Below are positions 24,778 through 64,000 of a stretch of DNA of 64,000 bases, one piece after another. The first letter of the stretch is position 1, and each line of letters starts with the position of its first letter. The translations under genes were made by a program, and so were the position numbers. The DNA is from a bacterium. GTDB taxonomy: Bacteria; Myxococcota_A; Polyangia; HGW-17; JAJRWW01. The stretch lies in contig JBDRSE010000156.1 in the NCBI GenBank assembly GCA_043825095.1, positions 125,309 through 189,308 on the forward strand, written 5' to 3'. The notes below the pieces were generated by a model. It saw nothing but the letters and a program-made list of their open reading frames with translations. It made no database searches and had not been told where the DNA came from.

Positions 24778-24884
24778 GCTGCTCCAGGTGGCGTGATTCC
24801 GCGGCGTTGACGCCTCTTGACATCCCTAGGGTGGACCTCTATTGTACCTGTCGAATTCAGGCAATCAACCGGCTGAGGCTAAGC

Positions 24885-25744: not shown

Positions 25745-25746
25745 CC

Positions 25747-29091: not shown

Positions 29092-29124
29092 TACGGCGAA
29101 CGAGCAGACGACGAGGCGAAACTG

Positions 29125-30426
29125 ATGGCAGACATACAACAGCTCTACGCGATTACCTGGAACGCCGGCTGGGGCGAGCTCATTGCGACGCTCATCCGGG
29201 CGGTGCTGGTGATCCTCCCGGTGATTCTCCTCATGGCGATCTACACCTGGATGGAGCGCCGGCAGGCGTCCTTCATGCAGGATCGCATCGGTCCCACCCG
29301 GGCGAACATCCCCATCGCGGGCAAGAACATCACGCTCTGGGGCCTGGTGCACATCGCTGCGGACGGCCTGAAGTTCAGCTTCAAAGAGGACGTGGTCCCG
29401 AACAAGGTCCACCGGTTCCTGTTCGCCCTGGCGCCCATCCTGTCGCTGGCGCCGGTGGTGATCGTCTTCGTGGTCATCCCCTTTGGCGGGTACTTCGCCT
29501 ACCACCAGTGGGACCAGGTCGTAACGGCGGAAACCGTGCGCCTCGCGGCGGAGCAGGGCCGCTCGTTCCGGCTGCAGGCCACCAACCTCGACATCGGCCT
29601 GCTGCTGGTCTTCGCCTTCTCCGGGCTGGGCGTGTTCGGCGCCTCGCTGGCGGGCTACGGCTCCCACAACAAGTGGGCCCTCATCGGCGGGCTCCGGGCC
29701 GCGGCGCAGATGGTTTCCTACGAGGTCACCCTGGGCCTGACGGTCGTCGGCGCGCTGCTGCTCTACGGCACCCTGGAGCCCATGGCCATCGTCCAGTGGC
29801 AGGGCCCGAACCCCAGCAAGTGGGGCCTGGTGATCCAGCCCATCGGAGCGCTCCTCTTCCTCGCGGCGTCCATCGCCGAGTCCAAGCGCATCCCCTTCGA
29901 CCTCCCGGAGGGCGAGTCGGAGATCATCGGCTTCAACCTCGAGTACTCCGGCATGCGCTGGGGCATCTTCTTCATGGGCGAGTACATGGAGCTGGTGTTC
30001 GTGGGCGCGATGTTCACGACCCTGTTCCTCGGCGGCTTCAACGTCCCGTGGCTCTACGCCGACGGATTCCACTTCGGCGGCGCCCACCTGGCGCTGCCGC
30101 ACCTGGCCGTGGTGCTTCTGCAGATGCTCGCCTTCTGGATGAAGGTCGTCGCCATCGGGTTCCTCCAGGTCGCCATCCGTTGGACCCTGCCGCGGCTGCG
30201 GTACGACCAGCTGATGAAGCTCGGCTGGGTCGGCATGCTGCCGGTGTCCCTGGCCAACGTGATGATCACGGCCGTGCTGCTGCTGGTCTACAAAAAGCTC
30301 GGCTGGAAGATCGAGAACTTCTGGATCGCCTCCGTTGCCATGTTGCTGCTCACCTTCGCCTGCGTCACCATGCTGCCGCACTCCGGGGCCGCCGCAGGGG
30401 ATGAGAGCCACAGCGAAAGTCACTAG
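29125..30426 (+). CDS. nuoH: NADH-quinone oxidoreductase subunit H (with insertions)
   Basis: NuoH/ND1 motifs (MERRQASFMQDRIGP, RIPFDLPEGESE, RLRYDQLM). Confidence 0.88.
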   Translation: MADIQQLYAITWNAGWGELIATLIRAVLVILPVILLMAIYTWMERRQASFMQDRIGPTRANIPIAGKNITLWGLVHIAADGLKFSFKEDVVPNKVHRFLFALAPILSLAPVVIVFVVIPFGGYFAYHQWDQVVTAETVRLAAEQGRSFRLQATNLDIGLLLVFAFSGLGVFGASLAGYGSHNKWALIGGLRAAAQMVSYEVTLGLTVVGALLLYGTLEPMAIVQWQGPNPSKWGLVIQPIGALLFLAASIAESKRIPFDLPEGESEIIGFNLEYSGMRWGIFFMGEYMELVFVGAMFTTLFLGGFNVPWLYADGFHFGGAHLALPHLAVVLLQMLAFWMKVVAIGFLQVAIRWTLPRLRYDQLMKLGWVGMLPVSLANVMITAVLLLVYKKLGWKIENFWIASVAMLLLTFACVTMLPHSGAAAGDESHSESH

Positions 30427-30435
30427 GAGTCTTCT

Positions 30436-31209
30436 ATGCCCGCTCGCACTGTGAAACTCGACGCTCCCCAACGGACGGTTGCCGTGCAGTCCTACGTGGT
30501 GGAGATCGGCAAGGGGCTCTCCATTACGCTGCGCCACTTCTTCGTGAACTGGCCATCCCGGGTTCCCTGGATTCTCTTTGGCATCCTGGGCCTGGTGGGG
30601 GCCGGTCTCGGCGCCGGCGTGGTGGCGGGATTGAGCGCGGTATCTGGCAAACTCCAGGGTTACAACGGCGCCATGGTGATGTTCGCCGGCGTGCCGGCCG
30701 GCCTGGGACTGCTCTCCCTGGTGGCCGGTGTGGCCCAGCGCAAGTGGCTCACCCAGGACAAGACGTACCTGCGGCTCGTGCCGTATCCCGACGTGCCCGC
30801 GGACTACTACCCCCCCCGATACCGGGGAGAGCATCGGCTGATGCACCGGGAGGACGGCTCGGTGCGCTGCGTGTCGTGCATGATGTGCGCCACCGTCTGT
30901 CCGGCGGACTGTATCAACATCGTAGCCGCAGACGCGGCCGACCCGCCCGCGAACAAGACCGCGGTCCCGGACGCGAACGCCGAAAAGTTCCCCATCCGGT
31001 TCGAGATCGACCAGCTGCGCTGCGTGGTGTGCGGTCTGTGCGTGGAGGCGTGCCCCTGCGATGCCATCCGCATGGACTCCAATGTGCATGTGACCGCCTA
31101 TGCGAAGCGCGAAGATTTTCTCTTCGACCGGGCGCGTCTCATGAAGCGCGGCGCGCCTTCGAATGCGCTGCAGGGCGGTCATGGCCCTGGCTGGCGCGAG
31201 CTCGAGTAG
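30436..31209 (+). CDS. nuoI: NADH-quinone oxidoreductase subunit I with an N-terminal two-helix membrane extension
   Basis: Two 4Fe-4S motifs CVSCMMCATVCP / CVVCGLCVEACP; ~100-aa N-terminal extension with two hydrophobic helices. Confidence 0.78.
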   Translation: MPARTVKLDAPQRTVAVQSYVVEIGKGLSITLRHFFVNWPSRVPWILFGILGLVGAGLGAGVVAGLSAVSGKLQGYNGAMVMFAGVPAGLGLLSLVAGVAQRKWLTQDKTYLRLVPYPDVPADYYPPRYRGEHRLMHREDGSVRCVSCMMCATVCPADCINIVAADAADPPANKTAVPDANAEKFPIRFEIDQLRCVVCGLCVEACPCDAIRMDSNVHVTAYAKREDFLFDRARLMKRGAPSNALQGGHGPGWRELE

Positions 31210-31485
31210 CGCCGCCAGCGGATCTCTCACTCCTTCGGTCCCACATTCCGTCGTGATTCGCCCCCGCAGAGGCCGGCGCCTTTGTGCGGCGGGCGCTTGG
31301 TTTCGGACCCGAAGTCTCCTCAGGGTCGCGAAAAGGCGAAGGCGGACCCCGCAAACGGCGAAAAATCGGCCTGAAAACGTAAGAACCGGTCTTGAAACTC
31401 GGATCCAGGCGTGGGAAACTTTTTTCGGCTCTCGCCGCATGCGCGGGGGCTGTGACAACGGAAGGAACTGCAGCTGAGCGGGGCA

Positions 31486-46078: not shown

Positions 46079-46891
46079 ATGCATCGGAGGCAGGCAATGG
46101 GAAAGTGGAAGCCTGAGAAATGTCGCAGGAGGACGCCCAACCTCCAAAACCAGCGATCTCAATGGGCAACGCTTGCCCTGCTCGCTGTAGGTGCCTGCAT
46201 GCAGGCCGCTTGCGGTAGCGGAACGCGGCGCCGAGGCTCCGGAAACGTGCCCGCTCCGCCCCTCAGACCCTCCGCAGCCCACAGGTCCTCCGCGACGCCC
46301 AAGCCCTCCGCGACGCCCAGGCCCTCCACGACGCCCAGATCCTCGGCGGCCCACAGGCCCACTCCGACCTCCAAGCCACCTCGACCTCGGGCAGCCGACA
46401 AGGGTCTCCCTGGGTGGAATGGTTTCGGTGGGAAGCAACCATCGCGCCCTGCCGGGCGGAGCCGCGACACCGCTGTGCTCTCGGACGGCGAGCAACCCCT
46501 GGGCGCCCTGGTCGGCCACTCTGTCGGCCCCTACGGTGCAGGGAAGTACCGCAGTTCTGTTCCCAGGGTCTTCATGAGTCGTGCGAAAGTGATTGGCCCC
46601 CTGGACGCCAGCGCGATCCGCAAGGTCGCCCGGCACCACCTGGCCGAGGTCAGGCACTGCTACGTCAGCGTGGGCATTGCCGCGAACCGCAACCTGAAAG
46701 GAAGGGTCGAAGTCAGATTCACGATCAAGCCAACCGGATCGGTAGGCACATTGCGGATTGCTCGTTCCACGCTTCACCATGCCAGGACAGAGAGCTGTAT
46801 CAAGAGCGCCATGCGTCGCTGGCGCTTTCCCAAATCCGCGAGAGGCAGCACCACCGTCAATTACCCCTTCACCTTTGTGTCCAAGGGGTAG
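46079..46891 (+). CDS. Lipoprotein with Pro/Ser/Thr-rich repeat linker and C-terminal AgmX/PglI (TonB-C-like) domain
   Basis: Lipobox AVGAC; in-frame 21-bp tandem repeat (46286-46348) encoding PSATPKPSATPRPSTTPRSS; C-terminal block HHLAEVRHCY...GRVEVRFTIKPTGSV...CIKSAMRRWRFP. Confidence 0.5.
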   Translation: MHRRQAMGKWKPEKCRRRTPNLQNQRSQWATLALLAVGACMQAACGSGTRRRGSGNVPAPPLRPSAAHRSSATPKPSATPRPSTTPRSSAAHRPTPTSKPPRPRAADKGLPGWNGFGGKQPSRPAGRSRDTAVLSDGEQPLGALVGHSVGPYGAGKYRSSVPRVFMSRAKVIGPLDASAIRKVARHHLAEVRHCYVSVGIAANRNLKGRVEVRFTIKPTGSVGTLRIARSTLHHARTESCIKSAMRRWRFPKSARGSTTVNYPFTFVSKG

Positions 46892-49972: not shown

Positions 49973-50986
49973 ATGAGTGTATTCGTTGCTTTCGTCGCAT
50001 TTCTGGTCGTCCTGGGCCTGGGATACGTCGGCGGGAAAGTGACCGGGCTGCACATGCTCTTCGGGATGGTCATCCCGTACGCGGCCTTCTTCATTTTCCT
50101 CGTCGGGGTGATCCTGCGCATCTACAAGTGGGCGCGGTCTCCGGTCCCCTTCCGGATTCCCACCACGAGTGGACAGCAGAAATCCCTGGACTGGATCAAG
50201 TCGAACAAGTTCGACAATCCGAGCTCCACCTGGGGCGTCATCGGGCGGATGCTCGCCGAGGTGCTGCTGTTCCGGTCGCTGTTTCGGAACACCAAGGCCG
50301 AGGTGCACGACGGGCCGCACGTGGCCTACGGATCGTCCAAGTGGCTCTGGATCGGCGCCATGGCGTTTCACTGGTGCTTCCTGATCATCTACCTGCGCCA
50401 CTTCCGGTTCTTCCTGGAGCCGGTCCCGCTGTTCGCGAGCTACATGGCCGACGTGGACGGCTGGCTGACCATCGGGATCCCGGCGATCTACCTCACCAAC
50501 ATCCTGATCGTGCTGGCCCTGTCCTATCTGCTGGTGCGGCGGCTGCTGAATCCCCAGGTCCGCATCATCTCGCTCCCGGCGGACTACTTCCCGCTGCTGC
50601 TCATCCTCGGGATCGTGCTCAGCGGCATGGCGATGCGGTACCTGGAGTGGTTCCGGGTGGACCTCATCAAGGTGAAGGAGTTGGCGCTGGGCCTCGTCGC
50701 CTTCAGCCCCACGGTGCCCAAGGGCATCGGGACGCCCTTCTACGTGCACCTGTTCCTGATCTCCGTGCTGCTGGTCTACTTCCCCTTCTCCAAGCTGATG
50801 CACGCCGGGGGCGTGTTCCTGAGTCCCACCCGGAACCTGGCGAACAACAACCGGTTCGTGCGGCACGTAAACCCCTGGAACCCGGCGGTGGAAGTGCACG
50901 AGTACGACCACTGGGAGCACGAGTACAAGGACAAGATCGTGGCCTGCGGCTTGCCGCTCGACAAACCGGCTGACGAGGAAGCATAA
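49973..50986 (+). CDS. dsrM: DsrM-type membrane cytochrome b (NarI/HdrE family)
   Basis: Five TM helices with conserved His; NarI-like. Confidence 0.75.
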   Translation: MSVFVAFVAFLVVLGLGYVGGKVTGLHMLFGMVIPYAAFFIFLVGVILRIYKWARSPVPFRIPTTSGQQKSLDWIKSNKFDNPSSTWGVIGRMLAEVLLFRSLFRNTKAEVHDGPHVAYGSSKWLWIGAMAFHWCFLIIYLRHFRFFLEPVPLFASYMADVDGWLTIGIPAIYLTNILIVLALSYLLVRRLLNPQVRIISLPADYFPLLLILGIVLSGMAMRYLEWFRVDLIKVKELALGLVAFSPTVPKGIGTPFYVHLFLISVLLVYFPFSKLMHAGGVFLSPTRNLANNNRFVRHVNPWNPAVEVHEYDHWEHEYKDKIVACGLPLDKPADEEA

Positions 50987-50989
50987 GCA

Positions 50990-52663
50990 ATGTCATCTGG
51001 ATTCCCCAAGAATTTCCCGGCGCCCGAAGATCTGGCGGCGGTGGATTTGGAAAAAAAGCACCTCAAGAACTGGATGGACCCGTCCGTCAACTTCGAGGGT
51101 CGGCGCGGCACCTGGTCCTACCCGGCCGCCGCCAAGAACCTCAGGTACCTGGGTCTGCCGAACCCGCGGGAGTGGTCCCCCACCGACGACGACTGGAAGC
51201 TGCCCGACAGGTGGCAAGACACCGTGCTCGACGGCATGGCCGACCGGCTCGAGCGGTTCCGCTCCTTCCAGGTGATGATGGACATCTGCGTGCGCTGCGG
51301 CGCCTGCGCGGACAAGTGCCACTTCTTCATCGGCTCCGGCGACCCGAAGAACATGCCGGTGCTCCGGGCGGAGCTGCTCCGGTCCATCTACCGGCGACAC
51401 TTCACCACCACGGGCAAGATCCTGAAGTCCCTGGCGGGTGGGCGGGAGCTCACCGCCGAGGTGATGAAGGAGTGGTACTACTACTTCTTCCAGTGCACCG
51501 AGTGCCGCCGCTGCTCGGTGTTCTGTCCCTACGGCATCGACACCGCCGAGGTGACGATGATCGCCCGAGAGCTGATGAACCTCATCGGGCTGAACATCAA
51601 CTGGGTGCTCGAGCCGGCGGCCAACTGCCAGCGCACGGGCAACCACCTCGGCATCGAGCCCCACGCCTTCGTGGACAACATCGACTTCTTCTTGGACGAG
51701 ATCGAGGAGAACACCGGGTTTCGCCCCGAGGTGCCCATCAACAAAAAGGGCGCCGACGTGCTCTTCGTCACGCCTTCGGGCGACATCTTTGCCGATCCGG
51801 CGATCTACACCCTCATGGGCTACTTCCTGCTCTTCGACTTCCTGAAAAAGGAGCACGGGTTCAACTGGACCATGAGCGCCTACGCGTCCGAGGGCGGCAA
51901 CTTCGGCCTGTTCACCTCCAACGAGATGATCAAGCGGCTCAACGCCAAGATGTACCGCGAGGCGGACCGGCTCGGCGTGAAGTGGATCCTGGGCGGCGAG
52001 TGTGGCCACATGTGGCGGGTGGTCAACCAGTACATGGACACCATGAACGGCCCGGCCCCGTCGAAGATGATCGTCCCGAAGTCGCCCTTCACGCCGACCA
52101 TCTTCGAAAACGCCGCGTCCACGAAGATGGTGCACATCACCGAGTTCACCGCGGACCTGATCAAGCACAACATGCTGCCGCTGGACCCGTCCCGGAACGA
52201 CCGGTACCGGGTCACCTTCCACGACTCCTGTAACCCGGCCCGCGGCATGGGCCTGTTCGAGGAGCCGCGGTACATCCTGCGGAACGTCTGCAACAACTAC
52301 TGGGACATGCCGGAGTCCACCATCCGCGAGAACACCTTCTGCTGCGGGGGCGGCGCCGGCCTGGGCAACGACGAGAACTTCGAGATGCGCATGCGGGGTG
52401 GCCTGCCCCGGGGCAACGCCGTCAAGTACGTGCGGGACAAGCACGGCGTGAACCTGCTCACCTGCGTCTGCGCCATCGACAAGGCCACGCTGGTGCCGGT
52501 GTGCGACTACTGGGCCGAGGGCGTGGGCGTGGCCGGGATCCACGAGCTGGTGGCCAACGCCCTGGTGTTCAAGAAGGGCGAAGAGCGGAAGCTGAACCTG
52601 CGCGGCGAGCCCCTCAAGGACGAGGAAGAGGCAGCAGCAGAGACGGAGGGCAATGATGCCTGA
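50990..52663 (+). CDS. dsrK: DsrK-type iron-sulfur protein (HdrD family, CCG domain)
   Basis: CVRCGACADKCHF and CTECRRCSVFCPYGI 4Fe-4S motifs, C-terminal CCGGGAG CCG domain. Confidence 0.8.
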   Translation: MSSGFPKNFPAPEDLAAVDLEKKHLKNWMDPSVNFEGRRGTWSYPAAAKNLRYLGLPNPREWSPTDDDWKLPDRWQDTVLDGMADRLERFRSFQVMMDICVRCGACADKCHFFIGSGDPKNMPVLRAELLRSIYRRHFTTTGKILKSLAGGRELTAEVMKEWYYYFFQCTECRRCSVFCPYGIDTAEVTMIARELMNLIGLNINWVLEPAANCQRTGNHLGIEPHAFVDNIDFFLDEIEENTGFRPEVPINKKGADVLFVTPSGDIFADPAIYTLMGYFLLFDFLKKEHGFNWTMSAYASEGGNFGLFTSNEMIKRLNAKMYREADRLGVKWILGGECGHMWRVVNQYMDTMNGPAPSKMIVPKSPFTPTIFENAASTKMVHITEFTADLIKHNMLPLDPSRNDRYRVTFHDSCNPARGMGLFEEPRYILRNVCNNYWDMPESTIRENTFCCGGGAGLGNDENFEMRMRGGLPRGNAVKYVRDKHGVNLLTCVCAIDKATLVPVCDYWAEGVGVAGIHELVANALVFKKGEERKLNLRGEPLKDEEEAAAETEGNDA

Positions 52664-53234
52664 AGACAAGAAGTCGGAGACGGCGGAGAAGCCGGAGACG
52701 GCGGAGAAGACCGAGAAGGCGAAGAAGGCGGCGGAGTACAAGCCGCACGTCTACAAGTATCCGCCCACGGAGCAGGCCAGGTCCGACATGCCCATGGTCT
52801 TTTTCGGGCTGCTGGTCTTCGTCGGGCTGATGCTGGCGGCCACCGTTGGCAATCGGGTCCTCCACAAGTTCAAGCAAAAGCCCGTGCTGGAGCTGCCCAA
52901 GCACGAGAAGAACTGCGTCCGGGACGTCCAGTTCATGCGCGAGAACCACATGAAGCTGCTCAACGACTGGCGGGACCAGGTGGTGCGCACGGGCGTCCGG
53001 TTCGAGCAGATCCCCCGGCGGGACGACCACGGCAAGGTCCTCAAGGACGGCCAAGGCAAGATCGTGCACCAGAAGATCGAGCGGAGCCTGACCAAGACCT
53101 GCCTGCGGTGCCACGACAACCCCCGGGCGTTCTGCGACCGGTGTCACGAGTACGCCGGCGTCACGAAGAAGGGCGGCCTGCTGGGTTGTTTTTCCTGCCA
53201 CATCCAGCCGAACCCCAAACCCGCGCGGAGATAA
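52653..53234 (+). CDS. dsrJ: DsrJ-type triheme cytochrome c
   Basis: Three CxxCH motifs (CLRCH, CDRCH, CFSCH); N-terminal TM/signal; RBS gacggaggg. Confidence 0.7.
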   Translation: MMPEDKKSETAEKPETAEKTEKAKKAAEYKPHVYKYPPTEQARSDMPMVFFGLLVFVGLMLAATVGNRVLHKFKQKPVLELPKHEKNCVRDVQFMRENHMKLLNDWRDQVVRTGVRFEQIPRRDDHGKVLKDGQGKIVHQKIERSLTKTCLRCHDNPRAFCDRCHEYAGVTKKGGLLGCFSCHIQPNPKPARR

Positions 53235-53237
53235 CCC

Positions 53238-54005
53238 ATGGACAGTGGAAAGAGAAATTTCCTGAAGATCGCCGGGCTGACCGCGGTGGGCGGGTACGTG
53301 GGCGTCAGGGCCGTGGGGGCCATCGCCGCGGGGCCCCAGAAGGCCAAGCAGACGCTGGCGCTCGTCATCGACACGCGCAAGTGCAAGGGCGACTGCCCGG
53401 ACTGCATCACGGCGTGCCACCGCGAGCACAACGTGCCCGAGCGGCACAACCCCAATTTCAAGCCCCCGGGGCCGTCTGCCAAGCAGGCCATCAAGTGGAT
53501 CTGGGTGGACACCTTTGCCGGCGCCTTCCACGAGCAGATCCACCAGCGTACGGGCAGGCGCAAGGACCCCTTGCTCGTGCTGTGCAACCACTGCGACGAT
53601 CCTCCCTGCACCCGGGTCTGTCCCACCAAGGCGACCTGGAAGCGGGAGCAGGACGGCATCATCACCATCGACATGCACCGCTGCATCGGCTGCCGGTTCT
53701 GCATGGCGGCGTGCCCCTACGGCTCCCGGTCCTTCAACTTCCACGACCCCCGCAAGTCGCTCAAGAGCGTCACGCCGGGGTTCCCCACCCGCACCCTCGG
53801 GGTGGTGGAGAAGTGCAACTTCTGCGAGGAGCGGCTCGAACGGGGTCTGCAGCCGGCCTGCGTGGAAGCCTGTGAGAAGAAGGCGATGTCCTTCGGTGAT
53901 CTGAACGACGACAAGTCGCCGGCTTCGGTGGCCCTCAAGGGCAACTTCACCATAACCCGCAAACCGCACCTCGGGACCGGTCCCGAGGTGTACTACATTC
54001 TGTGA
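53238..54005 (+). CDS. dsrO: DsrO-type periplasmic 4x[4Fe-4S] ferredoxin (Tat-like signal)
   Basis: KRNFLKIAGLTAVGG Tat-like signal; four Cys clusters typical of PsrB/DsrO. Confidence 0.75.
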   Translation: MDSGKRNFLKIAGLTAVGGYVGVRAVGAIAAGPQKAKQTLALVIDTRKCKGDCPDCITACHREHNVPERHNPNFKPPGPSAKQAIKWIWVDTFAGAFHEQIHQRTGRRKDPLLVLCNHCDDPPCTRVCPTKATWKREQDGIITIDMHRCIGCRFCMAACPYGSRSFNFHDPRKSLKSVTPGFPTRTLGVVEKCNFCEERLERGLQPACVEACEKKAMSFGDLNDDKSPASVALKGNFTITRKPHLGTGPEVYYIL

Positions 54006-54012
54006 GGCGCCA

Positions 54013-55164
54013 ATGCTCGAGAAAGCGTTAACCGGTAGCAAGCGGTATTGGGCCTGGATCTTCCTGCTGCTCTGCCTGTGCGGCATGGGCGGCGGCCTGT
54101 GGCTGTATCAGCTCAACGAAGGGCTGGGCGTCACGGGCCTGAACCGGGACGTGTCCTGGGGCCTGTACATCGCCCAGTTCACCTTCCTGGTCGGAGTGGC
54201 CGCCTCGGCGGTGATGGTGGTCCTGCCCTACTACCTCCACGACTACAAGGAGTTCGGGAAGATCACCATTCTGGGTGAGTTCCTGGCCATCCCGGCCTGC
54301 ATCATGTGCATGGCGTTCATCGTCGTGGACATGGGCCGGCCCGACCGCGTCGTGTACATGTTCATGCACGCCTCGCCCAACTCGGTCATGTTCTGGGACA
54401 CCGTGGTGCTCAGCGGCTACCTGGGCCTGAACATCGTGATCGGCTGGACCATGCTCACCTCGGAGCGCAAGGGCGTGCCCGCGCCGAAGTGGGTCAAGCC
54501 CCTGATTTACCTGTCCATCCCCTGGGCCGTCTCGATCCACACGGTGACGGCGTTCCTGTATCAGGGCCTGCCCGGCCGGGGCTTCTGGATGACCGCCATC
54601 ATGGCGCCGCGCTTCCTGGCCTCGGCCTTTGCCGCGGGTCCGTCCTTTTTGATCCTGATGTGTCTGCTGGTGCGGCGCTTCACCAAGTTCGATCCGGGTG
54701 ACAACGCCCTGCGCAAGCTCGGCCAGATCGTGACCTACGCCATGTTCATCAGCGTGTTCTTCTTCCTGATGGAGGTGTTCACGACCTACTACTCGAACAT
54801 CCCGGAGCACAAGCACCACTTCTACTACCTGTTCCGGGCCGGCCCCTGGTGGCTGCTCGCCGCGATGTGGGGCTTTGCCGCGCTGGCGGTGATCGGGCTG
54901 GTGATCATGGTCAATCCCCGCACCCGCAACCACATCCCCACCCTCGCGGTGGGCGCGGGCTGCGTTTTCGCGGCCAGCTGGTTGGAGAAGGGCCTCGGGC
55001 TCGTCATCGGCGGGCTCACGCCGAACCCCATGGGAAAATACACGGTCTACACGCCCACCCTCGTGGAGATCGGCATCGCCGTGGCCGTGTGGTCCTTTGG
55101 GATGCTCATCCTGACCGTGCTGTACAAGGTCGCCACCGGCGTCAAGGAAGAGCAGGCCGCGTAG
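54013..55164 (+). CDS. dsrP: DsrP-type NrfD/PsrC-family integral membrane protein
   Basis: ~10 TM helices, NrfD-family. Confidence 0.75.
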   Translation: MLEKALTGSKRYWAWIFLLLCLCGMGGGLWLYQLNEGLGVTGLNRDVSWGLYIAQFTFLVGVAASAVMVVLPYYLHDYKEFGKITILGEFLAIPACIMCMAFIVVDMGRPDRVVYMFMHASPNSVMFWDTVVLSGYLGLNIVIGWTMLTSERKGVPAPKWVKPLIYLSIPWAVSIHTVTAFLYQGLPGRGFWMTAIMAPRFLASAFAAGPSFLILMCLLVRRFTKFDPGDNALRKLGQIVTYAMFISVFFFLMEVFTTYYSNIPEHKHHFYYLFRAGPWWLLAAMWGFAALAVIGLVIMVNPRTRNHIPTLAVGAGCVFAASWLEKGLGLVIGGLTPNPMGKYTVYTPTLVEIGIAVAVWSFGMLILTVLYKVATGVKEEQAA

Positions 55165-55840
55165 CCTGGGCGCTCAAAACCACCCGCTCCCTCCTCTCTC
55201 TCTGTTTCAGTCTGTCCAGGGCGCCGCCGTCGATGCGGTGGATCGTCCAGTCGACCAGGGGCTTGGCGGGCTCGCGTAGAAGTTGATGGCCGGCTGGTTC
55301 CAGTCGAGCACCGCGAGCTCCAAAAACGGATCGGATCCACACAACTCGGGACCTGTGAGATCCCCTGGAACGCGTGGGAGCACCGGTGGCGGATCCGCGG
55401 GGGCCCCGCCCGATGACCCGGGCTGACCTACGGATGGGCGCGAGAGATGATCCTTTCGAATCACTGAGCTTGCGGAGCAATAGCTTCGGGAATCTGACTA
55501 TGAGAAACAGGTGTTTATCACGATGCAATCATCGGAATATTTGCGCATGGCAGATGGTAGACATCCCTGGAAAACACCGATGCCGGAATTGGCTGAGCAG
55601 GCCCCTCTCAGGCCCGATCCTGGCCGCTGTTCCCAGGTCGTGAGTTGCAGATTTTCACTGAGAATGGAACGCAAAAAGCGTGGTTTCGAGCCTCGATTTT
55701 CAGGGCACAATCCTGCGATTTTCCAGGTGATTGCCAGGATCTTCGTCAGTGGCTGGGCGCAAAGAAAACACCTGTTTTTATAGAGTATTTTCTCTGTTAG
55801 GCGCGACTCATTAAACTGCTCTTCGGAGAGCAAGTTTCTC

Positions 55841-55869
55841 TTGACACGCTGCATTGCGCTTGTTACCAA
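55841..55869 (+). promoter_or_regulatory. Sigma70-like promoter TTGACA-N17-TACCAA upstream of dsrC
   Basis: tcTTGACAcgctgcattgcgcttgtTACCAAgc; same architecture as 49281-49309. Confidence 0.4.
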
Positions 55870-56013
55870 GCAGTACACAAGTTGAAAAGACAATCGGTTT
55901 GCCCGTGAAGACAGTCACGACCTTTCGGTGCGGCGCGACTGGGTGGTAGCGCGGCGGACTAGAATTCAGCACCGGGTGGAAAAACGTTTCGGAGAATTCT
56001 GGAGGCCTTTCAC

Positions 56014-56331
56014 ATGCCTATGTTCGAGCAGGGTGACGTCAAGATCGAAGTCGATGAAGATGGATTCATCGTCAACCCCGACGATTGGAGCGAAGCAGTT
56101 GCAGCCGCGCTCGCCGGTGGCGAGGGCGTCGACGAGCTCACCGAAGAGCACTGGAAGGTGATGAACTACCTCCGTGACTACTATCAGAAGTTCGGTGTGG
56201 CTCCTATGATCCGCAAGCTCTGTAAGGAAACCGGTTTCCCGCTCAAGAGGATCTATGATCTGTTCCCCAGCGGGCCTGCGAAGGGTGCCTGCAAGCTGGC
56301 TGGACTTCCCAAGCCCACCGGTTGCGTCTGA
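56014..56331 (+). CDS. dsrC: DsrC (TusE/DsrC/DsvC family) with both C-terminal arm cysteines
   Basis: ...KGACKLAGLPKPTGCV C-terminus; RBS ctggagg. Confidence 0.85.
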   Translation: MPMFEQGDVKIEVDEDGFIVNPDDWSEAVAAALAGGEGVDELTEEHWKVMNYLRDYYQKFGVAPMIRKLCKETGFPLKRIYDLFPSGPAKGACKLAGLPKPTGCV

Positions 56332-56515: not shown

Positions 56516-57751
56516 GTGATGAGCCAAGCCGAGAGCAAACCGATTCTGGTTGTTGGCGGCGGAGTGAGCGGCATCAGCACCGCGCTGGAGCTGAGCGAGT
56601 TCGGCCGGCCGGTGATTCTCGTCGAGAAGGAGCCCTTTCTCGGCGGGAAGGTGGCCGCCTTCAACAAGTACTTTCCCAAGCTCTGTCCGCCCACCTGCGG
56701 GCTGGAGATCAACTACAAGCGTCTCCGGAAAAACGCGAATGTCACCGTGCACACCATGGCGCAGGTGACGCAGGTCAAAGGCGAGGCGGGCAGCTACGAG
56801 GTCACGATCGAGGTGCAGCCGCGCTTCGTAAACGACCGCTGCACCGCCTGCGGCGACTGCGCCGAGGCGTGCGCGGCGGAGCGCGAGGACACCTTCAATC
56901 AGGGCCTCGGCAAGACCAAGGCGATCTACACCGCGGGGAACATGGCGTACCCGAACCGGTTCGTGCTGGACCGGGCCGCCTGCGCCGAGGGGGATCTGGC
57001 CAAGATCAAGGACGCGTGCAAGTTCGGCGCGGTGGACCTAGACCAGACTGCGCAGACCCTGACCGAGCAGGTGGGGGCCATCGTCTGGGCCACGGGGTGG
57101 AGCTCCTACGACGTGTCCAAGGTGGAGTACCTCGGCTTCGGCAGGCTCCCCGACGTGATCACGAACCTGATGATGGAGCGGCTGGCCGACAACAGCGGGC
57201 CCACGGGAGGGAAGCTGTTACGGCCGTCGGACGGCAAGGAGGTCGAGAGCGTGGCCTTCGTGCAGTGCGCCGGCTCCCGGGACGTCAACCACCTGGCCTA
57301 TTGCTCCGGTGTCTGCTGCCTGGCCTCGCTCAAGCAGATCAACTATGTGCGGCAGGCGGCTCCGAACGCGAAGATCTACATGTTCCACATCGACGTGCGG
57401 GCCGGCAAGTACGAGGAGTTCTACACTCGGGTGTGTGGCGAACAGAACGTGGAGATCATCAAGGGCAAGGTCGCGGGCATCTTCCCCGAGGGCGACAAGC
57501 TGCGGCTGCAGGTGGAGAACATCGAGTCCGGGGAGTCGCTCAAGGTCGACGTGGACCTGGCGGTGCTGGCCACCGGCATCGTGCCCAACACGGCCGAGCT
57601 GCCTTTTGAGGGCACCAGGGACGACTACGGCTTTCTGATGCTCGACCCGACGAGCGGGATGATCCCCACCGGGTGCGTGCGTCGGCCGGCCGACGTCTCC
57701 ACCGTGGTGCAGGACGCAACCGGAGCCGCCATGCGGGCTCTCAGCCTTTGA
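56516..57751 (+). CDS. qmoA: QmoA-like FAD flavoprotein (HdrA family)
   Basis: FAD-binding ILVVGGGVSGISTALEL; RBS aaggagt; possible ATG at 56519. Confidence 0.75.
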   Translation: MMSQAESKPILVVGGGVSGISTALELSEFGRPVILVEKEPFLGGKVAAFNKYFPKLCPPTCGLEINYKRLRKNANVTVHTMAQVTQVKGEAGSYEVTIEVQPRFVNDRCTACGDCAEACAAEREDTFNQGLGKTKAIYTAGNMAYPNRFVLDRAACAEGDLAKIKDACKFGAVDLDQTAQTLTEQVGAIVWATGWSSYDVSKVEYLGFGRLPDVITNLMMERLADNSGPTGGKLLRPSDGKEVESVAFVQCAGSRDVNHLAYCSGVCCLASLKQINYVRQAAPNAKIYMFHIDVRAGKYEEFYTRVCGEQNVEIIKGKVAGIFPEGDKLRLQVENIESGESLKVDVDLAVLATGIVPNTAELPFEGTRDDYGFLMLDPTSGMIPTGCVRRPADVSTVVQDATGAAMRALSL

Positions 57752-57765
57752 GTAGAGGTACCCCA

Positions 57766-59961
57766 ATGGACAAAAAGCTAGGAGTGTACATCTGCACCGG
57801 ATGCGGCATCGGCGACGCCCTCGACATCGAGGCGGTGGCCAAGATCGCGACCAGCGATGGCAAGGCCGCGCTCTGTAAAAACCATGAATACCTGTGCGGC
57901 GAGGAGGGCCGCGCGCTCATCCAGGGGGACTTAGACAGCGAGTCCCTGGACGTGGTCGCCGTGGCTGCGTGCTCCATGCGCGAGAAGCAGCGGGAGTTCC
58001 AGTTCGGCAACGCCTGGGTGGAGCGGATCAACTTCCGTGAGCACCTGGCCTGGTGTCACGAGCCCAACGACGAGGACACCCAGTGGCTGGCCGAGGACTA
58101 CCTGCGGATGCTCGGCGCCCGGGTGGCCGTGACGTCGAAACCGGAGCCGCACGTCGAGGAGATGACGGATCGGCTGCTCGTGGTCGGCGGCGGAGTCAGC
58201 GGCCTGAATGCGGCCCTTTTCGCGGCCGAGGCGGGCCGCGAGGTGGTGCTGGTGGAGAAGGAGGACGCCCTGGGCGGCTTCCTCAGGCGCGTGCACAAGA
58301 AGTTTCCGGTCTCGCCACCCTACGAGGAACTCGAGGACAACGACATCGCGGACACCGTGGCCGCCGTGGAGGGCCACGGCAAGATCACGGTCTACAAGTC
58401 TTCCACTCTGGGCAAAGTCAACGGAGCTCCGGGCCGCTTCGAGGTGACCATCGAGGGCGCCGGCGCCAGCGAAACGGTGGGCTCCATCGTCGTGGCGGCC
58501 GGGTTCCAGCCCTACGACGTGTCCAAGGTCGCCAACCTGGGCTACGGCACCGTCAAGGACGTCGTGACCTCGGTAGAGCTGGAGGACATGGCCCGGGAGG
58601 GCAAGCTCACCCGGCCCTCGGACGACGGCGACCTCGAGACCGTGGTGTTCATCCAGTGCGCCGGCTCCCGGGACGCGGATCACCTGCCCTACTGCTCCAC
58701 GACCTGCTGCGCCGTGTCGCTCAAGCAGACGCAGTACATCCGGGACGCCAACGACGAGGCCAAGACCTACGTCCTGTACAAGGACATCCGGACCCCGGGA
58801 CAGTGGGAGACTTTCTATCAGAGCGTGCAGAAGAAGGGCACGCTCTTCGTGAAGGCCGAGATCACGTCCGTGGAGGCCGGGGACGACGGCGGCGCGGTGG
58901 TCCTGGCCCGCGATCTGCTGCTGGGCGAGGACATCGAGATCGAGTGCGACCTGGTGGTCCTGGCCGTGGGCCAGCAGACCACGGTGCTGGATCAGAAGGT
59001 CCTGAACCTGGGATATCGGCAGGGCCCCGAGCTGCCGGCGCTGGGCGAGAAGGTCCAGCTCACCGAGGGCGAGGGCGAAGCTGCGCAGGAGGTGGCCCGG
59101 GTGGACCAGCCCACGGGCGGCTTCCCCAATTCCCACTTCATCTGCTTCCCCTACGAGAGTCGGCGCACGGGCATCTACGCCGCCGGCTCGGTGCGTCAGC
59201 CCATGGACACCGCCTCCGCGGCGGACGACGCGGCGGGCGCCGCCTTCCAGGCCCTCAAGTCAGTGAAGCTGGGCGGTGAGGGCAAAGCCGTGCACCCGCG
59301 GGTGGGCGACGTCTCGTGGCCCGACTTCGCGCTGCAGCGGTGCACCCAGTGCAAGCGCTGCACCGAGGAGTGCCCCTTCGGCGCGCTGGACGAGGACGAG
59401 AAGGGCACGCCGAAGCCGAACCCGACCCGCTGTCGGCGGTGCGGCGTCTGCATGGGCGCGTGCCCGGAGCGGATCGTCAACTTTGCCGACTACTCCGTGC
59501 AGTCCATCAACTCGATGATCAAGGGCATCAACGTGCCCGAGGAGTGGGAGGAGAAGCCCTGCGTGCTGTGCCTGATGTGCGAGAACGACGCCTACCCGGC
59601 GCTGGACATCGTGGGCACCCAGCGGCTGAAGTACTCACCCTTCGTGCGCTTCGTCCAGATGCGCTGCCTCGGCGGGCTGAACCTCCAGTGGATCGCCGAC
59701 TCCATGGCCAAGGGCTTCGACGGCGTGCTGCTGCTGGGGTGCAAGGCCGGGGACGACTACCAGTGCCACTTCATCCAGGGGAGCGAGCTGGCCCAGATCC
59801 GGCTCAGCAAGGTGGCCGAGACCCTGGATCGGCTGATGCTGGAGTCGGACCGCGTGGAGTACCACGAGGTGGAGATTGACAACTACGGGGCCATGCCGAA
59901 GATCATCGATGACTTCTTGGCGAAGCTCGAGGCGCTCGGTCCCAACCCGTTCAAGGATTAG
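57766..59961 (+). CDS. qmoB: QmoB-like flavoprotein (HdrA family with 2x[4Fe-4S] and C-terminal MvhD-like domain)
   Basis: LLVVGGGVSGLNAA FAD site; CTQCKRCTEECPFG and CRRCGVCMGACPER clusters; C-terminal MRCLGGLNLQWIADSMAKGFDGVLLLGC MvhD-like. Confidence 0.75.
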   Translation: MDKKLGVYICTGCGIGDALDIEAVAKIATSDGKAALCKNHEYLCGEEGRALIQGDLDSESLDVVAVAACSMREKQREFQFGNAWVERINFREHLAWCHEPNDEDTQWLAEDYLRMLGARVAVTSKPEPHVEEMTDRLLVVGGGVSGLNAALFAAEAGREVVLVEKEDALGGFLRRVHKKFPVSPPYEELEDNDIADTVAAVEGHGKITVYKSSTLGKVNGAPGRFEVTIEGAGASETVGSIVVAAGFQPYDVSKVANLGYGTVKDVVTSVELEDMAREGKLTRPSDDGDLETVVFIQCAGSRDADHLPYCSTTCCAVSLKQTQYIRDANDEAKTYVLYKDIRTPGQWETFYQSVQKKGTLFVKAEITSVEAGDDGGAVVLARDLLLGEDIEIECDLVVLAVGQQTTVLDQKVLNLGYRQGPELPALGEKVQLTEGEGEAAQEVARVDQPTGGFPNSHFICFPYESRRTGIYAAGSVRQPMDTASAADDAAGAAFQALKSVKLGGEGKAVHPRVGDVSWPDFALQRCTQCKRCTEECPFGALDEDEKGTPKPNPTRCRRCGVCMGACPERIVNFADYSVQSINSMIKGINVPEEWEEKPCVLCLMCENDAYPALDIVGTQRLKYSPFVRFVQMRCLGGLNLQWIADSMAKGFDGVLLLGCKAGDDYQCHFIQGSELAQIRLSKVAETLDRLMLESDRVEYHEVEIDNYGAMPKIIDDFLAKLEALGPNPFKD

Positions 59962-59995: not shown

Positions 59996-61162
59996 ATGTC
60001 GGATGCACAGAATCCGGAACCCGAACTAGGCGCAGCCATCGCGGAGATGGGCGGTGAGACCCTCTACTGGTGCATGCAGTGTGGACTCTGCACGGGGGGC
60101 TGCCCCTGGCGATTGACCGACGGCGAGATCAACCGGGAGTTCAACGCCCGCAAGCTCCAGCACATGGGTCAGCTGGGGCTGGAGGGCTATGAGTCGGACA
60201 ACAACCTCTTCGCGTGCACCACCTGCGGCCTCTGCGTCAAGCGGTGCCCGCGGGAGGTGAACGCCATCGACAACATCCGGTCCATGCGGATGATGCTGGC
60301 CGAGGGGGGCGGGGTTCCACAGAACTACCGCTCCATCGTGGGCAGCCTGACCGACAACGGCAACCCGTGGATGGAGGGCCGTGAGAAGCGGAAGTCCTGG
60401 ATCAAGGACCTGGACGTGCCCACCTTCACCGAGGACACGGAGTACCTGCTCTTCGTCTGCTGCACGTCGTGCTACGACGCGCGCTCTCAGCACATCGCCC
60501 GGGCCATCGCCACGCTGCTCAACAAGGCCGGAGTGAGCTGGGGCATTCTCGGCGAGCAGGAGAGCTGCTGCGGCGAGTCGATCCGCAAGATCGGCCAGGA
60601 GGAGCTCTTCGGAACCCTCGCCGAGGCCAACATCGAGCTGTTCAATGGCAGGGGCGTCAAGAAGATCATCGTCACCTCGCCCCACTGCATGTTCACGTTC
60701 TTGAACGAGTACCCCGAGCGGGGCGGCGAGTTCCAGGTGCAGCACTACACCCAGCTCCTGGCGGACCTGATTCGCGAAGGCAAGCTGAAGCTGGACAAGG
60801 ACCTCGGCGTAGTGGTCGCCTTCCACGACCCGTGCTACCTGGGGCGACACTGCGACGTCTACCAGGACCCCAGGGAGGTCCTCGCGGCGCTCCCGGGCAC
60901 GCAGGTGATGGAGCTCACGCGGAATCGCGAGAGCAGCATCTGCTGTGGCGGCGGCGGCGGGCGGGTGTGGATGGAGACCCCTCCGGGAGAGCGTTTCGGT
61001 GACCTGCGGGTCAATGACGCCTTGGCCCACGAGGCGTCGGTGCTGGTCACTTCCTGTCCTTACTGCACGATCATGATGGAGGCGTCGGTGCTCGGGCTGG
61101 ACAAAGAGGAGGAGATCAAGGTCAAGGACGTAGCTGAGCTCGTGCTGGACGCCCTCGCGTAG
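59996..61162 (+). CDS. HdrD-like (HdrC+HdrB fusion) iron-sulfur protein with two CCG domains, soluble
   Basis: CMQCGLCTGGCPW / CTTCGLCVKRCPR 4Fe-4S motifs; two CCG motifs (ESCCGES, SICCGGGG); no TM helices. Confidence 0.7.
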   Translation: MSDAQNPEPELGAAIAEMGGETLYWCMQCGLCTGGCPWRLTDGEINREFNARKLQHMGQLGLEGYESDNNLFACTTCGLCVKRCPREVNAIDNIRSMRMMLAEGGGVPQNYRSIVGSLTDNGNPWMEGREKRKSWIKDLDVPTFTEDTEYLLFVCCTSCYDARSQHIARAIATLLNKAGVSWGILGEQESCCGESIRKIGQEELFGTLAEANIELFNGRGVKKIIVTSPHCMFTFLNEYPERGGEFQVQHYTQLLADLIREGKLKLDKDLGVVVAFHDPCYLGRHCDVYQDPREVLAALPGTQVMELTRNRESSICCGGGGGRVWMETPPGERFGDLRVNDALAHEASVLVTSCPYCTIMMEASVLGLDKEEEIKVKDVAELVLDALA

Positions 61163-61192: not shown

Positions 61193-61858
61193 ATGTCGAA
61201 ACCGCTGTATCCCGTCGCCCTGCGACTTCGAGACAAACCCGTGCTGGTGGTGGGCGGCGGCCCTGTGGCCGCACGCAAGGTCGCACGCCTGCTCGACTGC
61301 GGCGCCCGCGTCACCCTGGTCGCCCTCGCTGCTGCCCAGGAGCTGGAGGACGCAGCCGTCCGAGGGACGATCGTCTGGCATCGGCGGCCCTTCACTCCCA
61401 CGGACGTGGAGGGCGCGGCGCTCGTGTTCACCGCCACCGGCGACGAGGCCGTGGATGCGTCCGTCGCCGCGGCTGCCCAGGGCCTGTCCATCTGGGTCAA
61501 CGTCGCCGATTCCGCGGCGGCCGGGGACGTGCAGCTGCCCGCGCTCCTGCGGGCCGGTGCCGTGACGGTGGCGGTCTCCACCGCCGGGGCCGCGCCCGGG
61601 TTTGCGGCCCGGCTCGCGCGGGAGCTGGAGCCGCGGCTGTCGCATGTGGGCCCCTACGTGGAGCTGCTCGGCGCGCTGCGGCAGGATCTGCGGCAGCGAT
61701 TCCCGGACGCGCCGGCCCGGCGGCAGCGTGCCTTTGCGGCGGCGCTCGACTGCGCTGCCGCCCGCGAGCACGCTGAGCAGGGTCGCCTGGACGAGGCCGG
61801 ACTGGCGCTGCGATCGGCCGCGGAGGCTGCGCTGGACGCGGAAGGGGACCAAGGATGA
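61193..61858 (+). CDS. sirC: Precorrin-2 dehydrogenase / sirohydrochlorin ferrochelatase (SirC/CysG N-terminal-like)
   Basis: Rossmann LVVGGGPVAARKVARLL; CysG N-domain-like. Confidence 0.65.
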   Translation: MSKPLYPVALRLRDKPVLVVGGGPVAARKVARLLDCGARVTLVALAAAQELEDAAVRGTIVWHRRPFTPTDVEGAALVFTATGDEAVDASVAAAAQGLSIWVNVADSAAAGDVQLPALLRAGAVTVAVSTAGAAPGFAARLARELEPRLSHVGPYVELLGALRQDLRQRFPDAPARRQRAFAAALDCAAAREHAEQGRLDEAGLALRSAAEAALDAEGDQG

Positions 61859-61864
61859 AGCCTC

Positions 61865-63454
61865 ATGCGAGCAGGTGACCACGTGCCCGCCGCAGGGGAC
61901 GGGCTGTTTAACGGCGCGTCCACCGCCGCGGACGAGTCGGCAGGCGGTCCGGGGAAGATCTACCTCGTCGGTGCGGGCCCCGGGGACCCGGATCTGATCA
62001 CCGTCCGCGGCGCCCAGCTCTGCCAGAGCTGCGATGCGTTGGTCTACGACAGCCTGGTCCCCGCCGAGCTCGTGGCGAACAGCCCGGCCCTGCGCAAAAT
62101 CTACGTGGGCAAGACCGAGGGCGGCCACACCATGACCCAGGACGAGATCACCCGGCTGTTGGTGGATCTGGCCCACGAGCCCGGGGGACCGCGTCGAATC
62201 GTCAGGCTGAAAGGTGGCGATCCCTACGTCTTCGGCCGCGGGGGCGAGGAGGCGCTGGCCTGCCGCGAGGCAGGCGTTCCGCTGGAGGTCGTGCCCGGCG
62301 TGACCGCCGGGGTGGCCGCGCCGGCCTATGCCGGCGTGCCGGTGACGCACCGACGCACCAGCCGCGGGGTCATCTTTTTTACGGGCCATCTGGCGCACGG
62401 AAACCTGGATCACCTGCCCTGGGCCCAGCTGGCGACCAGCGGATTCACCCTGGTGAGCTACATGGGGGTGTCGACCCTGGAGCAGATCGCCGCCCGTCTC
62501 GTGGAGGCGGGTTTGGCTCCCGACACTCCGGCCATGGTCGTTCAGGAGGGCACCACCCCGGGCCAGCGAAGCGTGTGCGCGCCTCTTTCGCAGCTCGCGG
62601 AGCGCGCCCGGGCGGTTGGCATTCGGCCGCCCGCCGTGACCGTGATCGGGCAGGTGGTTTCCCTTGCCGAGACGCTCGGGCCCCAGCGCCCTCGGCCGCT
62701 GGCCGGCAAGACCGTGGTGCTGCTCAAGGCCGAAGAGAGCAGCTACTCCGAGCTGGCGCCGCTGCGCCGGGCGGGAGCGCGGGTCATCGAGGTTTCGGTG
62801 GTGCGCTGCGTGCAGAGCCCCCATCCCGAGGAAGTGGAGACCGGGCTCTTGGCCATGCGTGGGGAGCATGTGGTGTTCTTCCGATCCGCCGCTGCCGCGC
62901 GGTTCTTCGGCGACGCCTGGCGAAAGCTGTCCGGGCGACCGCAGCCGCGGCTGATTGCGGGCAGCCCCACCGTGCGGGATGCGCTGCTGCGCCAGGGATT
63001 CGACGTGGTCTACACCGAGCAAGGGCGCGTCGGGGCGTTGGAGACGCTGCGCGGGGCCGCGGTGGCGCCGGGGACCACGGTCTGGATGCCTCGGAGCACG
63101 GGCGCAGGGACCGAGACCCCGCGCGAGCTCGAGGCTGCCGGCTTCAGTCCGCGCCTCCTCCGCGTGTACGAAACCAAGCACGTCCCAGTGCCCAACGACG
63201 TCCGCTCCATCCTCTCCTCAGGGCGCGTGGACGCAGTGTTGTTCCTGTCTGGAAGCTGCGCTCGCGCGGCGGCAGTGGCCGCTCCTCACCTCGGGCGGCA
63301 GCAGGACCGGCCCGTGCTGTTCGGCGCCGTGGGGCCCCTCACCGCGCGCGCTGCGAGCGAGGTAGGGATCCACTGTGAGGTCGTACCGGATCTACCGCGT
63401 GTTGCGGATCTGGTGGACGCGGTCCTCACCCAAATGATCCCCGGATCCCGGTAG
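61865..63454 (+). CDS. cobA-hemD: Uroporphyrinogen-III C-methyltransferase fused to uroporphyrinogen-III synthase (CobA/HemD)
   Basis: IYLVGAGPGDPDLITVRG, VVRLKGGDPYVFGRGGEE SAM-MTase motifs; C-terminal ~250 aa HemD-like. Confidence 0.75.
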   Translation: MRAGDHVPAAGDGLFNGASTAADESAGGPGKIYLVGAGPGDPDLITVRGAQLCQSCDALVYDSLVPAELVANSPALRKIYVGKTEGGHTMTQDEITRLLVDLAHEPGGPRRIVRLKGGDPYVFGRGGEEALACREAGVPLEVVPGVTAGVAAPAYAGVPVTHRRTSRGVIFFTGHLAHGNLDHLPWAQLATSGFTLVSYMGVSTLEQIAARLVEAGLAPDTPAMVVQEGTTPGQRSVCAPLSQLAERARAVGIRPPAVTVIGQVVSLAETLGPQRPRPLAGKTVVLLKAEESSYSELAPLRRAGARVIEVSVVRCVQSPHPEEVETGLLAMRGEHVVFFRSAAAARFFGDAWRKLSGRPQPRLIAGSPTVRDALLRQGFDVVYTEQGRVGALETLRGAAVAPGTTVWMPRSTGAGTETPRELEAAGFSPRLLRVYETKHVPVPNDVRSILSSGRVDAVLFLSGSCARAAAVAAPHLGRQQDRPVLFGAVGPLTARAASEVGIHCEVVPDLPRVADLVDAVLTQMIPGSR

Positions 63455-63689
63455 CGCCTGCCCGCTATTTCCGGCGTAGTTAATGAGTACTCAATAACGA
63501 ATGGTTAGTGGGGGCTCATTATCGAGCCCGAATCCGTGCCTTTCCGAGGGGAATTGAAGCACTTTTACCATTGGGACTGACAATGGATATAATGCAATTA
63601 TTTCAGAAGGTTAAATAGCAGTCAAACTGGATGAGATTAGGCCGGAACTACCACTATCGGAAAATCGAAAATCAGCGTGACGAATATGC

Positions 63690-63906: not shown

Positions 63907-64000
63907 ATGCCGAGCTATGTGATCACTGAGAAATGTGATGGATGTAAAGGCCAGGACAAGACTGCCTGCATGTACATCTGTCCCAACGACCTGATGCTGC
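63907..64000 (+). CDS. aprB: Adenylylsulfate reductase beta subunit (N-terminal fragment, continues past window)
   Basis: MPSYVITEKCDGCKGQDKTACMYICPNDLM matches the characteristic AprB N-terminus; RBS acaggaggg. Confidence 0.75.
   Translation, partial: MPSYVITEKCDGCKGQDKTACMYICPNDLML

Follow-up and report, generated by a model that had tools for sequence, protein, structure and literature searches.

A soluble HdrD-like iron-sulfur protein in the position of QmoC within a dsr/apr/siroheme gene cluster that retains dsrMKJOP

The 64-kb stretch of DNA analysed here (hereafter the window; positions 125,309 to 189,308 of contig JBDRSE010000156.1) carries part of a gene cluster for dissimilatory sulfur metabolism, in which the genes for QmoA and QmoB, two HdrA-like flavoproteins, are followed by a gene for a soluble HdrD-like Fe-S protein. 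The analysis confirmed that this protein replaces the membrane subunit QmoC in the visible cluster. The open reading frame (ORF) in question, at 59996-61162, probably encodes the third subunit of QmoAB-HdrD, a cytoplasmic Qmo variant that would partner the dissimilatory adenosine 5′-phosphosulfate (APS) reductase, AprBA. The genes and domains concerned are the following:

56519..57751, + strand: qmoA, HdrA-like flavoprotein of 410 amino acids (Pfam and NCBIfam HdrA-type matches; AAGGAG before the ATG at 56519)
57766..59961, + strand: qmoB, HdrA-like flavoprotein of 731 amino acids with two [4Fe-4S] clusters and a C-terminal MvhD domain (Pfam FlpD, FAD and Fer4)
59996..61162, + strand: HdrD-like protein (fusion of HdrC-like and HdrB-like parts), soluble, in the qmoC position (ORF, Pfam, no transmembrane segment, AlphaFold2 model)
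60068..60259, + strand: N-terminal HdrC-like ferredoxin domain with two [4Fe-4S] clusters, residues 25-88 (Pfam, matches to HdrC chains)
60458..60688, + strand: core of the first CCG domain, C155 to C231, VCCTSC ... CCG ... S228-P-H230-C231 (sequence, alignment, mapping onto EtfD 9OJN)
60815..61078, + strand: second CCG domain, residues 274-361 (best Pfam stretch; aligns to HdrB residues 112-245)

The HdrD-like ORF starts with ATG, encodes 388 amino acids (GenBank MFH2007371.1) and has a coding-type third-position GC content of 0.90, matching that of its neighbours. It follows qmoB after a gap of 34 nt by ORF coordinates, and the promoter/terminator scan gave no terminator-like site between the two genes. 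In Pfam, residues 25-88 match the dicluster ferredoxin family Fer4_8, and PF02754 (E=8.8e-30) accounts for two CCG stretches. The ferredoxin motifs are C26xxC29xxC32xxxC36P and C74xxC77xxC80xxxC84P, and the CCG cysteines are C155/C156/C159, C191C192G, C231, C280, C316C317G and C354xxC357. In an alignment of 121 family members with 57-100% identity, all 19 cysteines of the protein, as well as His230, are invariant or nearly so. Hydrophobicity was scanned by the method of Kyte and Doolittle (19-residue window, segment threshold 1.6). The maximum for the HdrD-like protein was 1.34, so that no segment reached the threshold, and the same test yielded 5 segments for DsrM, 7 for DsrP and 6 for each of two reference QmoC proteins. 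A preliminary description of this DNA, made from the sequence alone, had reported a 388-residue product with two 4Fe-4S motifs and two CCG domains, lacking transmembrane segments and placed immediately after qmoA-qmoB. The ORF, Pfam and cysteine pattern bear out the first of these points, the hydrophobicity scan the second, and the short gap together with the identity of QmoA and QmoB to their counterparts in canonical loci (53-55%) the third. That description had also named two observations that would speak against it, membrane helices in this product and a qmoC next to apr genes; both were looked for in the approximately 71 kb available (the 64-kb window and about 7 kb of an overlapping contig, see below), and neither was found.

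The relation of the protein to QmoC is confined to its N-terminal part. The NCBIfam qmoC model NF038018 matched residues 14-109 only, with 33.7 bits against a cut-off of 300, and the two reference QmoC proteins matched the window only at 59996-60322, i.e. over the first ~107 residues of the HdrD-like ORF, with 26-29% identity. A membrane domain of the QmoC type is absent from this ORF by both the NF038018 match and the hydrophobic segments. Thus the HdrC-like domain has been kept and the C-terminal module differs, cytochrome b in one case and two CCG domains in the other; the third genes of two reference canonical loci, L133 and L135, encode a Fer4 domain followed by a CitB/NarI-type membrane domain. 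Searches with reference QmoC against L001 (the overlapping contig) and contigs L083, L090 and L102 gave nothing beyond the same N-terminal ~107 residues, and neither a qmoC, adjoining aprBA or elsewhere, nor an aprM was found in the window and about 7 kb of L001. Nor is there an adjacent hdrE gene for a cytochrome b, as in HdrDE of the Methanosarcina type: the neighbours of hdrD are qmoB and a sirC-like gene, and the sole NarI-type protein nearby is DsrM.

NCBIfam offers no model for QmoA or QmoB, and assignment of the two flavoproteins was therefore based on identity to apr-linked loci and on a rough neighbour-joining tree rather than on rigorous phylogeny. The FlpD/MvhD domain of QmoB lies at residues 631-756 of the long version of its ORF, and QmoB homologues with 51-55% identity carry the name QmoB at JGI. 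The two reference canonical loci have the order sat / aprBA-qmoA-qmoB-qmoC-dsrAB...dsrD (L133) and aprBA-...-qmoA-qmoB-qmoC (L135); the QmoA of the window is 55% identical to that of both, and its QmoB 53-54%. In the QmoB tree, sequences linked to QmoC are nested among those linked to HdrD, and the paralogous hdrD-hdrA-hdrA/mvhD clusters form a separate clade. By these comparisons QmoA and QmoB of the window are orthologue-grade relatives of the proteins encoded in canonical aprBA-qmoABC loci. A homologue of 1114 amino acids, P0171, was considered as a possible QmoB-HdrD fusion; this was rejected, the protein being instead a natural fusion of QmoA (residues 3-401) and QmoB (residues 406-1112), which supports physical association of the two flavoproteins.

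The qmoAB-hdrD trio is a conserved module. HdrD homologues with 58-66% identity are numerous, and among the 36 homologue loci outside the clade of the window with enough upstream sequence to be assessed, qmoA and qmoB lie directly upstream of hdrD in 31 where both genes are present and in part in the remaining 5, located at a contig edge, with no exception; the same holds for a Desulfosporosinus locus found through QmoB. From this invariant adjacency in every assessable homologue locus we infer that QmoA, QmoB and HdrD would form a physical complex. The trio adjoins aprBA, with or without sat, in the clade of the window, in L086 and L087 (two large genomes), in L088 and in L134. The order is sat-aprBA-qmoAB-hdrD in L088, a metagenome-assembled genome (MAG) of Bacillota whose HdrD is 60% identical to the window protein, and qmoAB-hdrD-sat-aprBA in L134, Desulfosporosinus sp. 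Sb-LF, whose fused HdrD is 54% identical over the full length. One or two PF03692 genes (CxxCxxCC, YkgJ-like) are found between aprA and qmoA in loci of both the HdrD type and the QmoC type (L086:5428-6324, L087:5586-6461, L135:2980-4716), and are absent from the clade of the window.

The cluster continues past the window end on L001, a metagenome contig found by exact-protein look-up that shares 10,034 bp with the window at 99.94% identity. Taken together, the two sequences give the order dsrMKJOP-dsrC-qmoAB-hdrD-sirC-cobA/hemD-aprBA-dsrAB-dsrN-dsrL, with all genes upstream of hdrD, from dsrM to qmoB, on the + strand. Three related contigs, with protein identities of 77-88%, show this order as well. 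The trio lies 2.7 kb upstream of aprBA, and its embedding in a single compact dsr/apr/siroheme supercluster speaks for a function dedicated to dissimilatory sulfur metabolism. Besides the trio, the window contains:

49973..55164, + strand: dsrMKJOP, complete five-gene membrane complex (NCBIfam, Pfam, synteny)
56014..56331, + strand: dsrC, with both C-terminal cysteines present (...GACKLAGLPKPTGCV; Pfam DsrC E=8e-39, TIGR03342)
61241..63454, + strand: sirC-like gene (NAD_binding_7) and cobA/hemD fusion, siroheme synthesis (Pfam, gene calls on L001)
63907..64000, + strand: 5′ portion of aprB, truncated at the end of the window, with aprB-aprA continuing on L001 (identity to L001)

DsrM, DsrK and DsrJ were recognized by NCBIfam (504, 703 and 96.2 bits, the last slightly below the cut-off of 100 bits); the assignment of DsrO and DsrP relies on Pfam families together with synteny in L083. 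The 850-bp gap between dsrP and dsrC (55165-56013) holds no called gene and no coding-type ORF and appears AT-richer by eye; it is presumably a regulatory region for dsrC and the qmo genes. In the clade of the window dsrC precedes qmoA by 187 nt. The siroheme genes between hdrD and aprB are tightly spaced with qmo and hdrD, a placement kept in this clade only, and a promoter-like site is found before aprB at 63564-63593. Since terminator counts in the promoter/terminator scan were at chance level, operon structure rests on gene spacing only. On L001, aprB and aprA match TIGR02060 (197 bits) and TIGR02061 (912 bits), respectively, both above cut-off, and are followed by an ORF for an 88-residue zinc-ribbon protein, dsrA, dsrB, a dsrN-type amidase gene and a dsrL-like gene. 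No apr or sat gene was found in the 64-kb window beyond the 5′ end of aprB, and the 71 kb examined showed no sat, the gene for sulfate adenylyltransferase.

Several further observations concern this neighbourhood. The zinc-ribbon ORF, of 88-92 codons, stands directly after aprA in several distant lineages with 33-70% identity (L001:12370-12636, L083:16303-16569, L086:5126-5401, L087:5195-5473), and has a weak match to an Ogr/Delta-like zinc finger (E=2e-5). The protein encoded by dsrB (L001:14129-15526) has 465 amino acids, contains an acidic linker and is extended at its C terminus by ~110 residues, possibly a DsrD-like winged helix; the idea of a fused DsrD was rejected, as the extension is recognized neither by the Pfam DsrD model nor by a reference DsrD, and a match to TBPIP at E=0.12 gives only a weak hint of a winged helix. 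No separate dsrD was seen on L001, L083 or L090. The dsrL-like gene after the dsrN-type gene (L001:17078-17199 and beyond) encodes at least 562 amino acids with Fer4_20 and Pyr_redox_2 domains. An enzyme of the reductive type is suggested, though not proven, by the 60% identity of DsrAB to its counterpart in L133, where dsrD and a canonical sat-aprBA-qmoABC set are present. Elsewhere in the window, a protein with a C-terminal domain of the AgmX/GltG type, a myxobacterial gliding-motility family (46079-46891), and a block of nuo genes for complex I (24800-31300) are consistent with a Myxococcota-like respiratory diderm. The UvrA of this uncultured, probably Myxococcota-related bacterium has its nearest named counterparts in Polyangia and Myxococcota, with 65-66% identity.

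The arrangement is already in the literature, so that the value of the present locus is confirmatory: it is a further instance of the published QmoAB-HdrD arrangement and not a new system. QmoAB-HdrD was described by Neukirchen et al. 2023 (PMC10504309) for Gram-positives, some Deltaproteobacteria and unclassified lineages, and loss of qmoC with hdrCB in its stead is documented for Gram-positive sulfate reducers by Ramos et al. 2012, by DiSCo (Neukirchen and Sousa 2021) and by proteomics of Desulfotomaculum reducens (PMC3333476, PMC8477390, PMC4759654); the variant, as QmoAB-HdrD or QmoAB-HdrCB, is also credited to Junier et al. 2010 and Pereira et al. 2011. In Diao et al. 2023 the complex is denoted QmoAB(C), and Myxococcota MAGs are reported to carry complete Dsr-pathway gene sets, dsrL-2 among them. 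The preliminary description had compared the locus with Gram-positive sulfate reducers, correctly, as the fused form is present in Desulfosporosinus sp. Sb-LF; it had further suggested that the quinone connection must come from elsewhere or that the system is cytoplasmic, and this finds support in the published inference that the membrane link was lost together with QmoC (PMC10504309). The locus shares with the published variant the succession of qmoA, qmoB and, in the place of qmoC, a gene for a soluble protein with two [4Fe-4S] clusters and two CCG domains, linked to aprBA. It departs modestly from the classical picture in that the host is of a high-GC diderm type with a complete dsrMKJOP, whereas loss of qmoC is classically paired with a set restricted to dsrMK (PMC3333476), and in its unusual packing of genes, dsrC-qmoAB-hdrD-siroheme genes-aprBA.

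Comparison with other systems helps to delimit the protein. Canonical QmoABC of the Desulfovibrio, Archaeoglobus and Chlorobium types has in common with it the association with aprBA, the two flavoproteins and the N-terminal HdrC-like ferredoxin domain of the third subunit, but here two CCG domains take the place of the six-helix cytochrome b (HdrE-like) domain. HdrBC and HdrD of methanogens show the same order of an HdrC-like and then an HdrB-like domain, the same spacing of the second CCG motif and a similar fold (TMt ~0.65 for HdrB, and HdrC as well). Unlike in these enzymes, the first CCG motif reads SPHC instead of CxxC with extra cysteines, sequence similarity to HdrB is weak, two partner subunits, QmoA and QmoB, take the place of a single HdrA or HdrE, and the substrate CoM-S-S-CoB is not expected in a bacterium. 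The clusters of the hdrD-hdrA-hdrA/mvhD type encode the same three kinds of protein, with HdrD 43-49% identical and the motifs CCTSC and HDPCYLGR shared, yet have the reverse order, with hdrD first, HdrA-like proteins only 25-32% identical to QmoA and QmoB, and no apr linkage among the matches listed. A scan of genome contigs with the family alignment yielded, among the matches listed, mostly paralogues of 36-58% identity, namely these clusters and actinobacterial EtfD-like genes, which were used as outgroup only. The clusters (L007-L038 and others) occur among the matches listed in Desulfobacterota, Chloroflexota, Bacillota, Acidobacteriota and other MAGs.

No solved structure of QmoABC was found in the PDB. 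The AlphaFold2 model of the HdrD-like protein (pTM 0.82) has its best fold match in the soluble region of EtfD from Mycobacterium smegmatis (9OJN; TMq 0.79), followed by LutA, HdrB and HdrC. A sequence search against solved structures likewise gave EtfD, with E=7e-67 over residues 69-387, in which the ferredoxin clusters and both CCG domains align, and HdrC for the N-terminus (E ~1e-14; chains 8rvv_C and 5odc_C cover residues 7-118). The HdrB-type CCG module comprises two copies of CX31-39CCX35-36CXXC. The second copy of the HdrD-like protein fits this spacing exactly (C280-X35-C316C317-X36-C354xxC357); in the first, C156-X34-CC-X35-S228-P-H-C231, one cysteine has become serine, and C155 and C159 are additional invariant cysteines. 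C156, C191 and C231 map to ligands of cluster D1 in the EtfD structure (PMC13083937).

Within the proposed QmoAB-HdrD complex, the HdrC-like two-cluster domain, common to QmoC, probably docks to QmoB/QmoA and wires the subunit into them, and the two CCG domains, which replace the di-haem cytochrome b membrane domain of QmoC, are expected to hold two Fe-S clusters of the noncubane type. Without the six-helix domain there is no quinol site, and electrons cannot come directly from menaquinol. Instead, the most likely route connects AprBA with a cytoplasmic redox partner that exchanges electrons at the CCG site; it would lead from there over the two [4Fe-4S] clusters and the flavins of QmoB/QmoA to AprB/AprA. 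The partner at the CCG site may be a thiol/disulfide couple, either DsrC, encoded directly upstream, or a small thiol, or else a donor protein. Flavin-based confurcation might bring in electrons from a second donor, of low potential, and the connection of the pathway to the membrane would fall to DsrMKJOP, complete here. Domain content, solubility, gene order, orthology of QmoA and QmoB, conservation of the trio and its linkage to apr and dsr genes are observed; that a complex forms, which way the electrons flow and what reacts at the CCG site we infer. It is tempting to carry the role of DsrC further, with the HdrD-like subunit using it as thiol or trisulfide substrate and QmoAB-HdrD acting as a cytoplasmic flavin-based bifurcating or confurcating hub, a proposal that we consider improbable as it stands. 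In a variant of this proposal, the His-capped, Ser-substituted CCG site may have a cluster chemistry of its own, between those of Hdr and EtfD.

Several points weigh against a cytoplasmic Qmo variant serving APS reductase, and they lend themselves in part to other explanations. The literature searched contained no experimental work on a QmoAB-HdrD complex, and even with QmoABC electron transfer from menaquinol to APS could not be reconstituted (PMC3333476). The CCG half of the protein is much nearer to EtfD (E=8e-52) than to HdrB (E ~3e-4), Ser228 replaces a cysteine present in both Hdr and EtfD, and His230 corresponds to His583 of EtfD, the residue that renders cluster D2 non-catalytic by capping it; in EtfD the equivalent clusters relay electrons without catalysis (PMC13083937). 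Disulfide chemistry at the CCG site is thus uncertain. The CCG clusters could accordingly be non-catalytic relays as in mycobacterial EtfD, the HdrD-like subunit docking a protein donor such as an ETF-like flavoprotein (ETF, electron-transfer flavoprotein), a ferredoxin or another oxidoreductase while the complex still serves AprBA. The sequence and fold matches to EtfD, the aligned histidine and the serine at a cluster-cysteine position speak for this alternative, which we consider unlikely. However, the window protein retains the full Cys191-Cys192 pair, with C192 restoring the Hdr-type Cys-Cys needed for a noncubane [4Fe-4S] cluster where EtfD has Cys538-Thr539 and a linear [3Fe-4S] cluster; it also has the additional invariant C155 and C159, no gene for ETF or another donor is present in the cluster, and the immediate upstream neighbour of qmoA is dsrC, for a thiol protein. 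EtfD differs further in its five transmembrane helices with haem b, its long disordered tail and its partner, which is ETF and not a pair of HdrA-like flavoproteins.

Most qmoAB-hdrD trios, at 58-64% identity, lack an apr gene in the flanks fetched (up to 10 kb downstream and ~6 kb on the upstream side of qmoA). Partnership with Apr is therefore not obligatory for the trio, a conserved module that is only sometimes apr-linked. This bears on two further explanations. The trio might primarily be a soluble HdrABC-like enzyme that processes DsrC alongside DsrMK, for example a cytoplasmic reductase of DsrC trisulfide or disulfide, possibly bifurcating, instead of the electron partner of APS reductase; the short distance between dsrC and qmoA in the clade of the window fits this idea, as does the weakly similar, HdrD-like DsrK, a known subunit of DsrC-trisulfide reductase. 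Adjacency of dsrC is, however, restricted to that clade and not seen in the other ~36 loci, the sulfur genes adjoining the trio in other lineages are aprBA and sat, and QmoA and QmoB are the orthologue-grade relatives of proteins from aprBA-qmoABC loci, with QmoA the published Apr-interacting subunit (PMC3333476), so that we regard a function in DsrC processing as rather unlikely. The other explanation starts from the extent of the sequence: only ~71 kb of the genome are visible, the sequence examined is part of a 226.8-kb contig of the MAG, and a qmoC or aprM elsewhere is possible. AprBA might then be served by a canonical partner (qmoC, a full qmoABC set or aprM) encoded at another site, with the trio as an accessory paralogue, and some sulfate reducers, e.g. 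Syntrophobacter fumaroxidans, indeed have two Qmo sets. The trio nevertheless stands in the sole visible dsr/apr supercluster, close to aprBA in an order conserved in related contigs, and no QmoC-like sequence appears in the window or in the four contigs searched; a separate partner for AprBA is the least probable of these alternatives. A cytoplasmic QmoAB-HdrD partnering APS reductase thus remains the reading that we favour.

The route of electrons to APS reductase, and any energy conservation at this step, is a live question even for canonical QmoABC, and lineages in which a soluble CCG protein stands in for the quinol-binding subunit amount to natural experiments that address it. Here the exchange is found in a Myxococcota-like organism that keeps a full DsrMKJOP. 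If DsrC were the substrate of the HdrD-like subunit, APS reduction would be tied to DsrC redox cycling and the APS step would be independent of the quinone pool. For specialists, the closer resemblance of the CCG half to the recently solved EtfD than to HdrB may be of interest as a secondary point.

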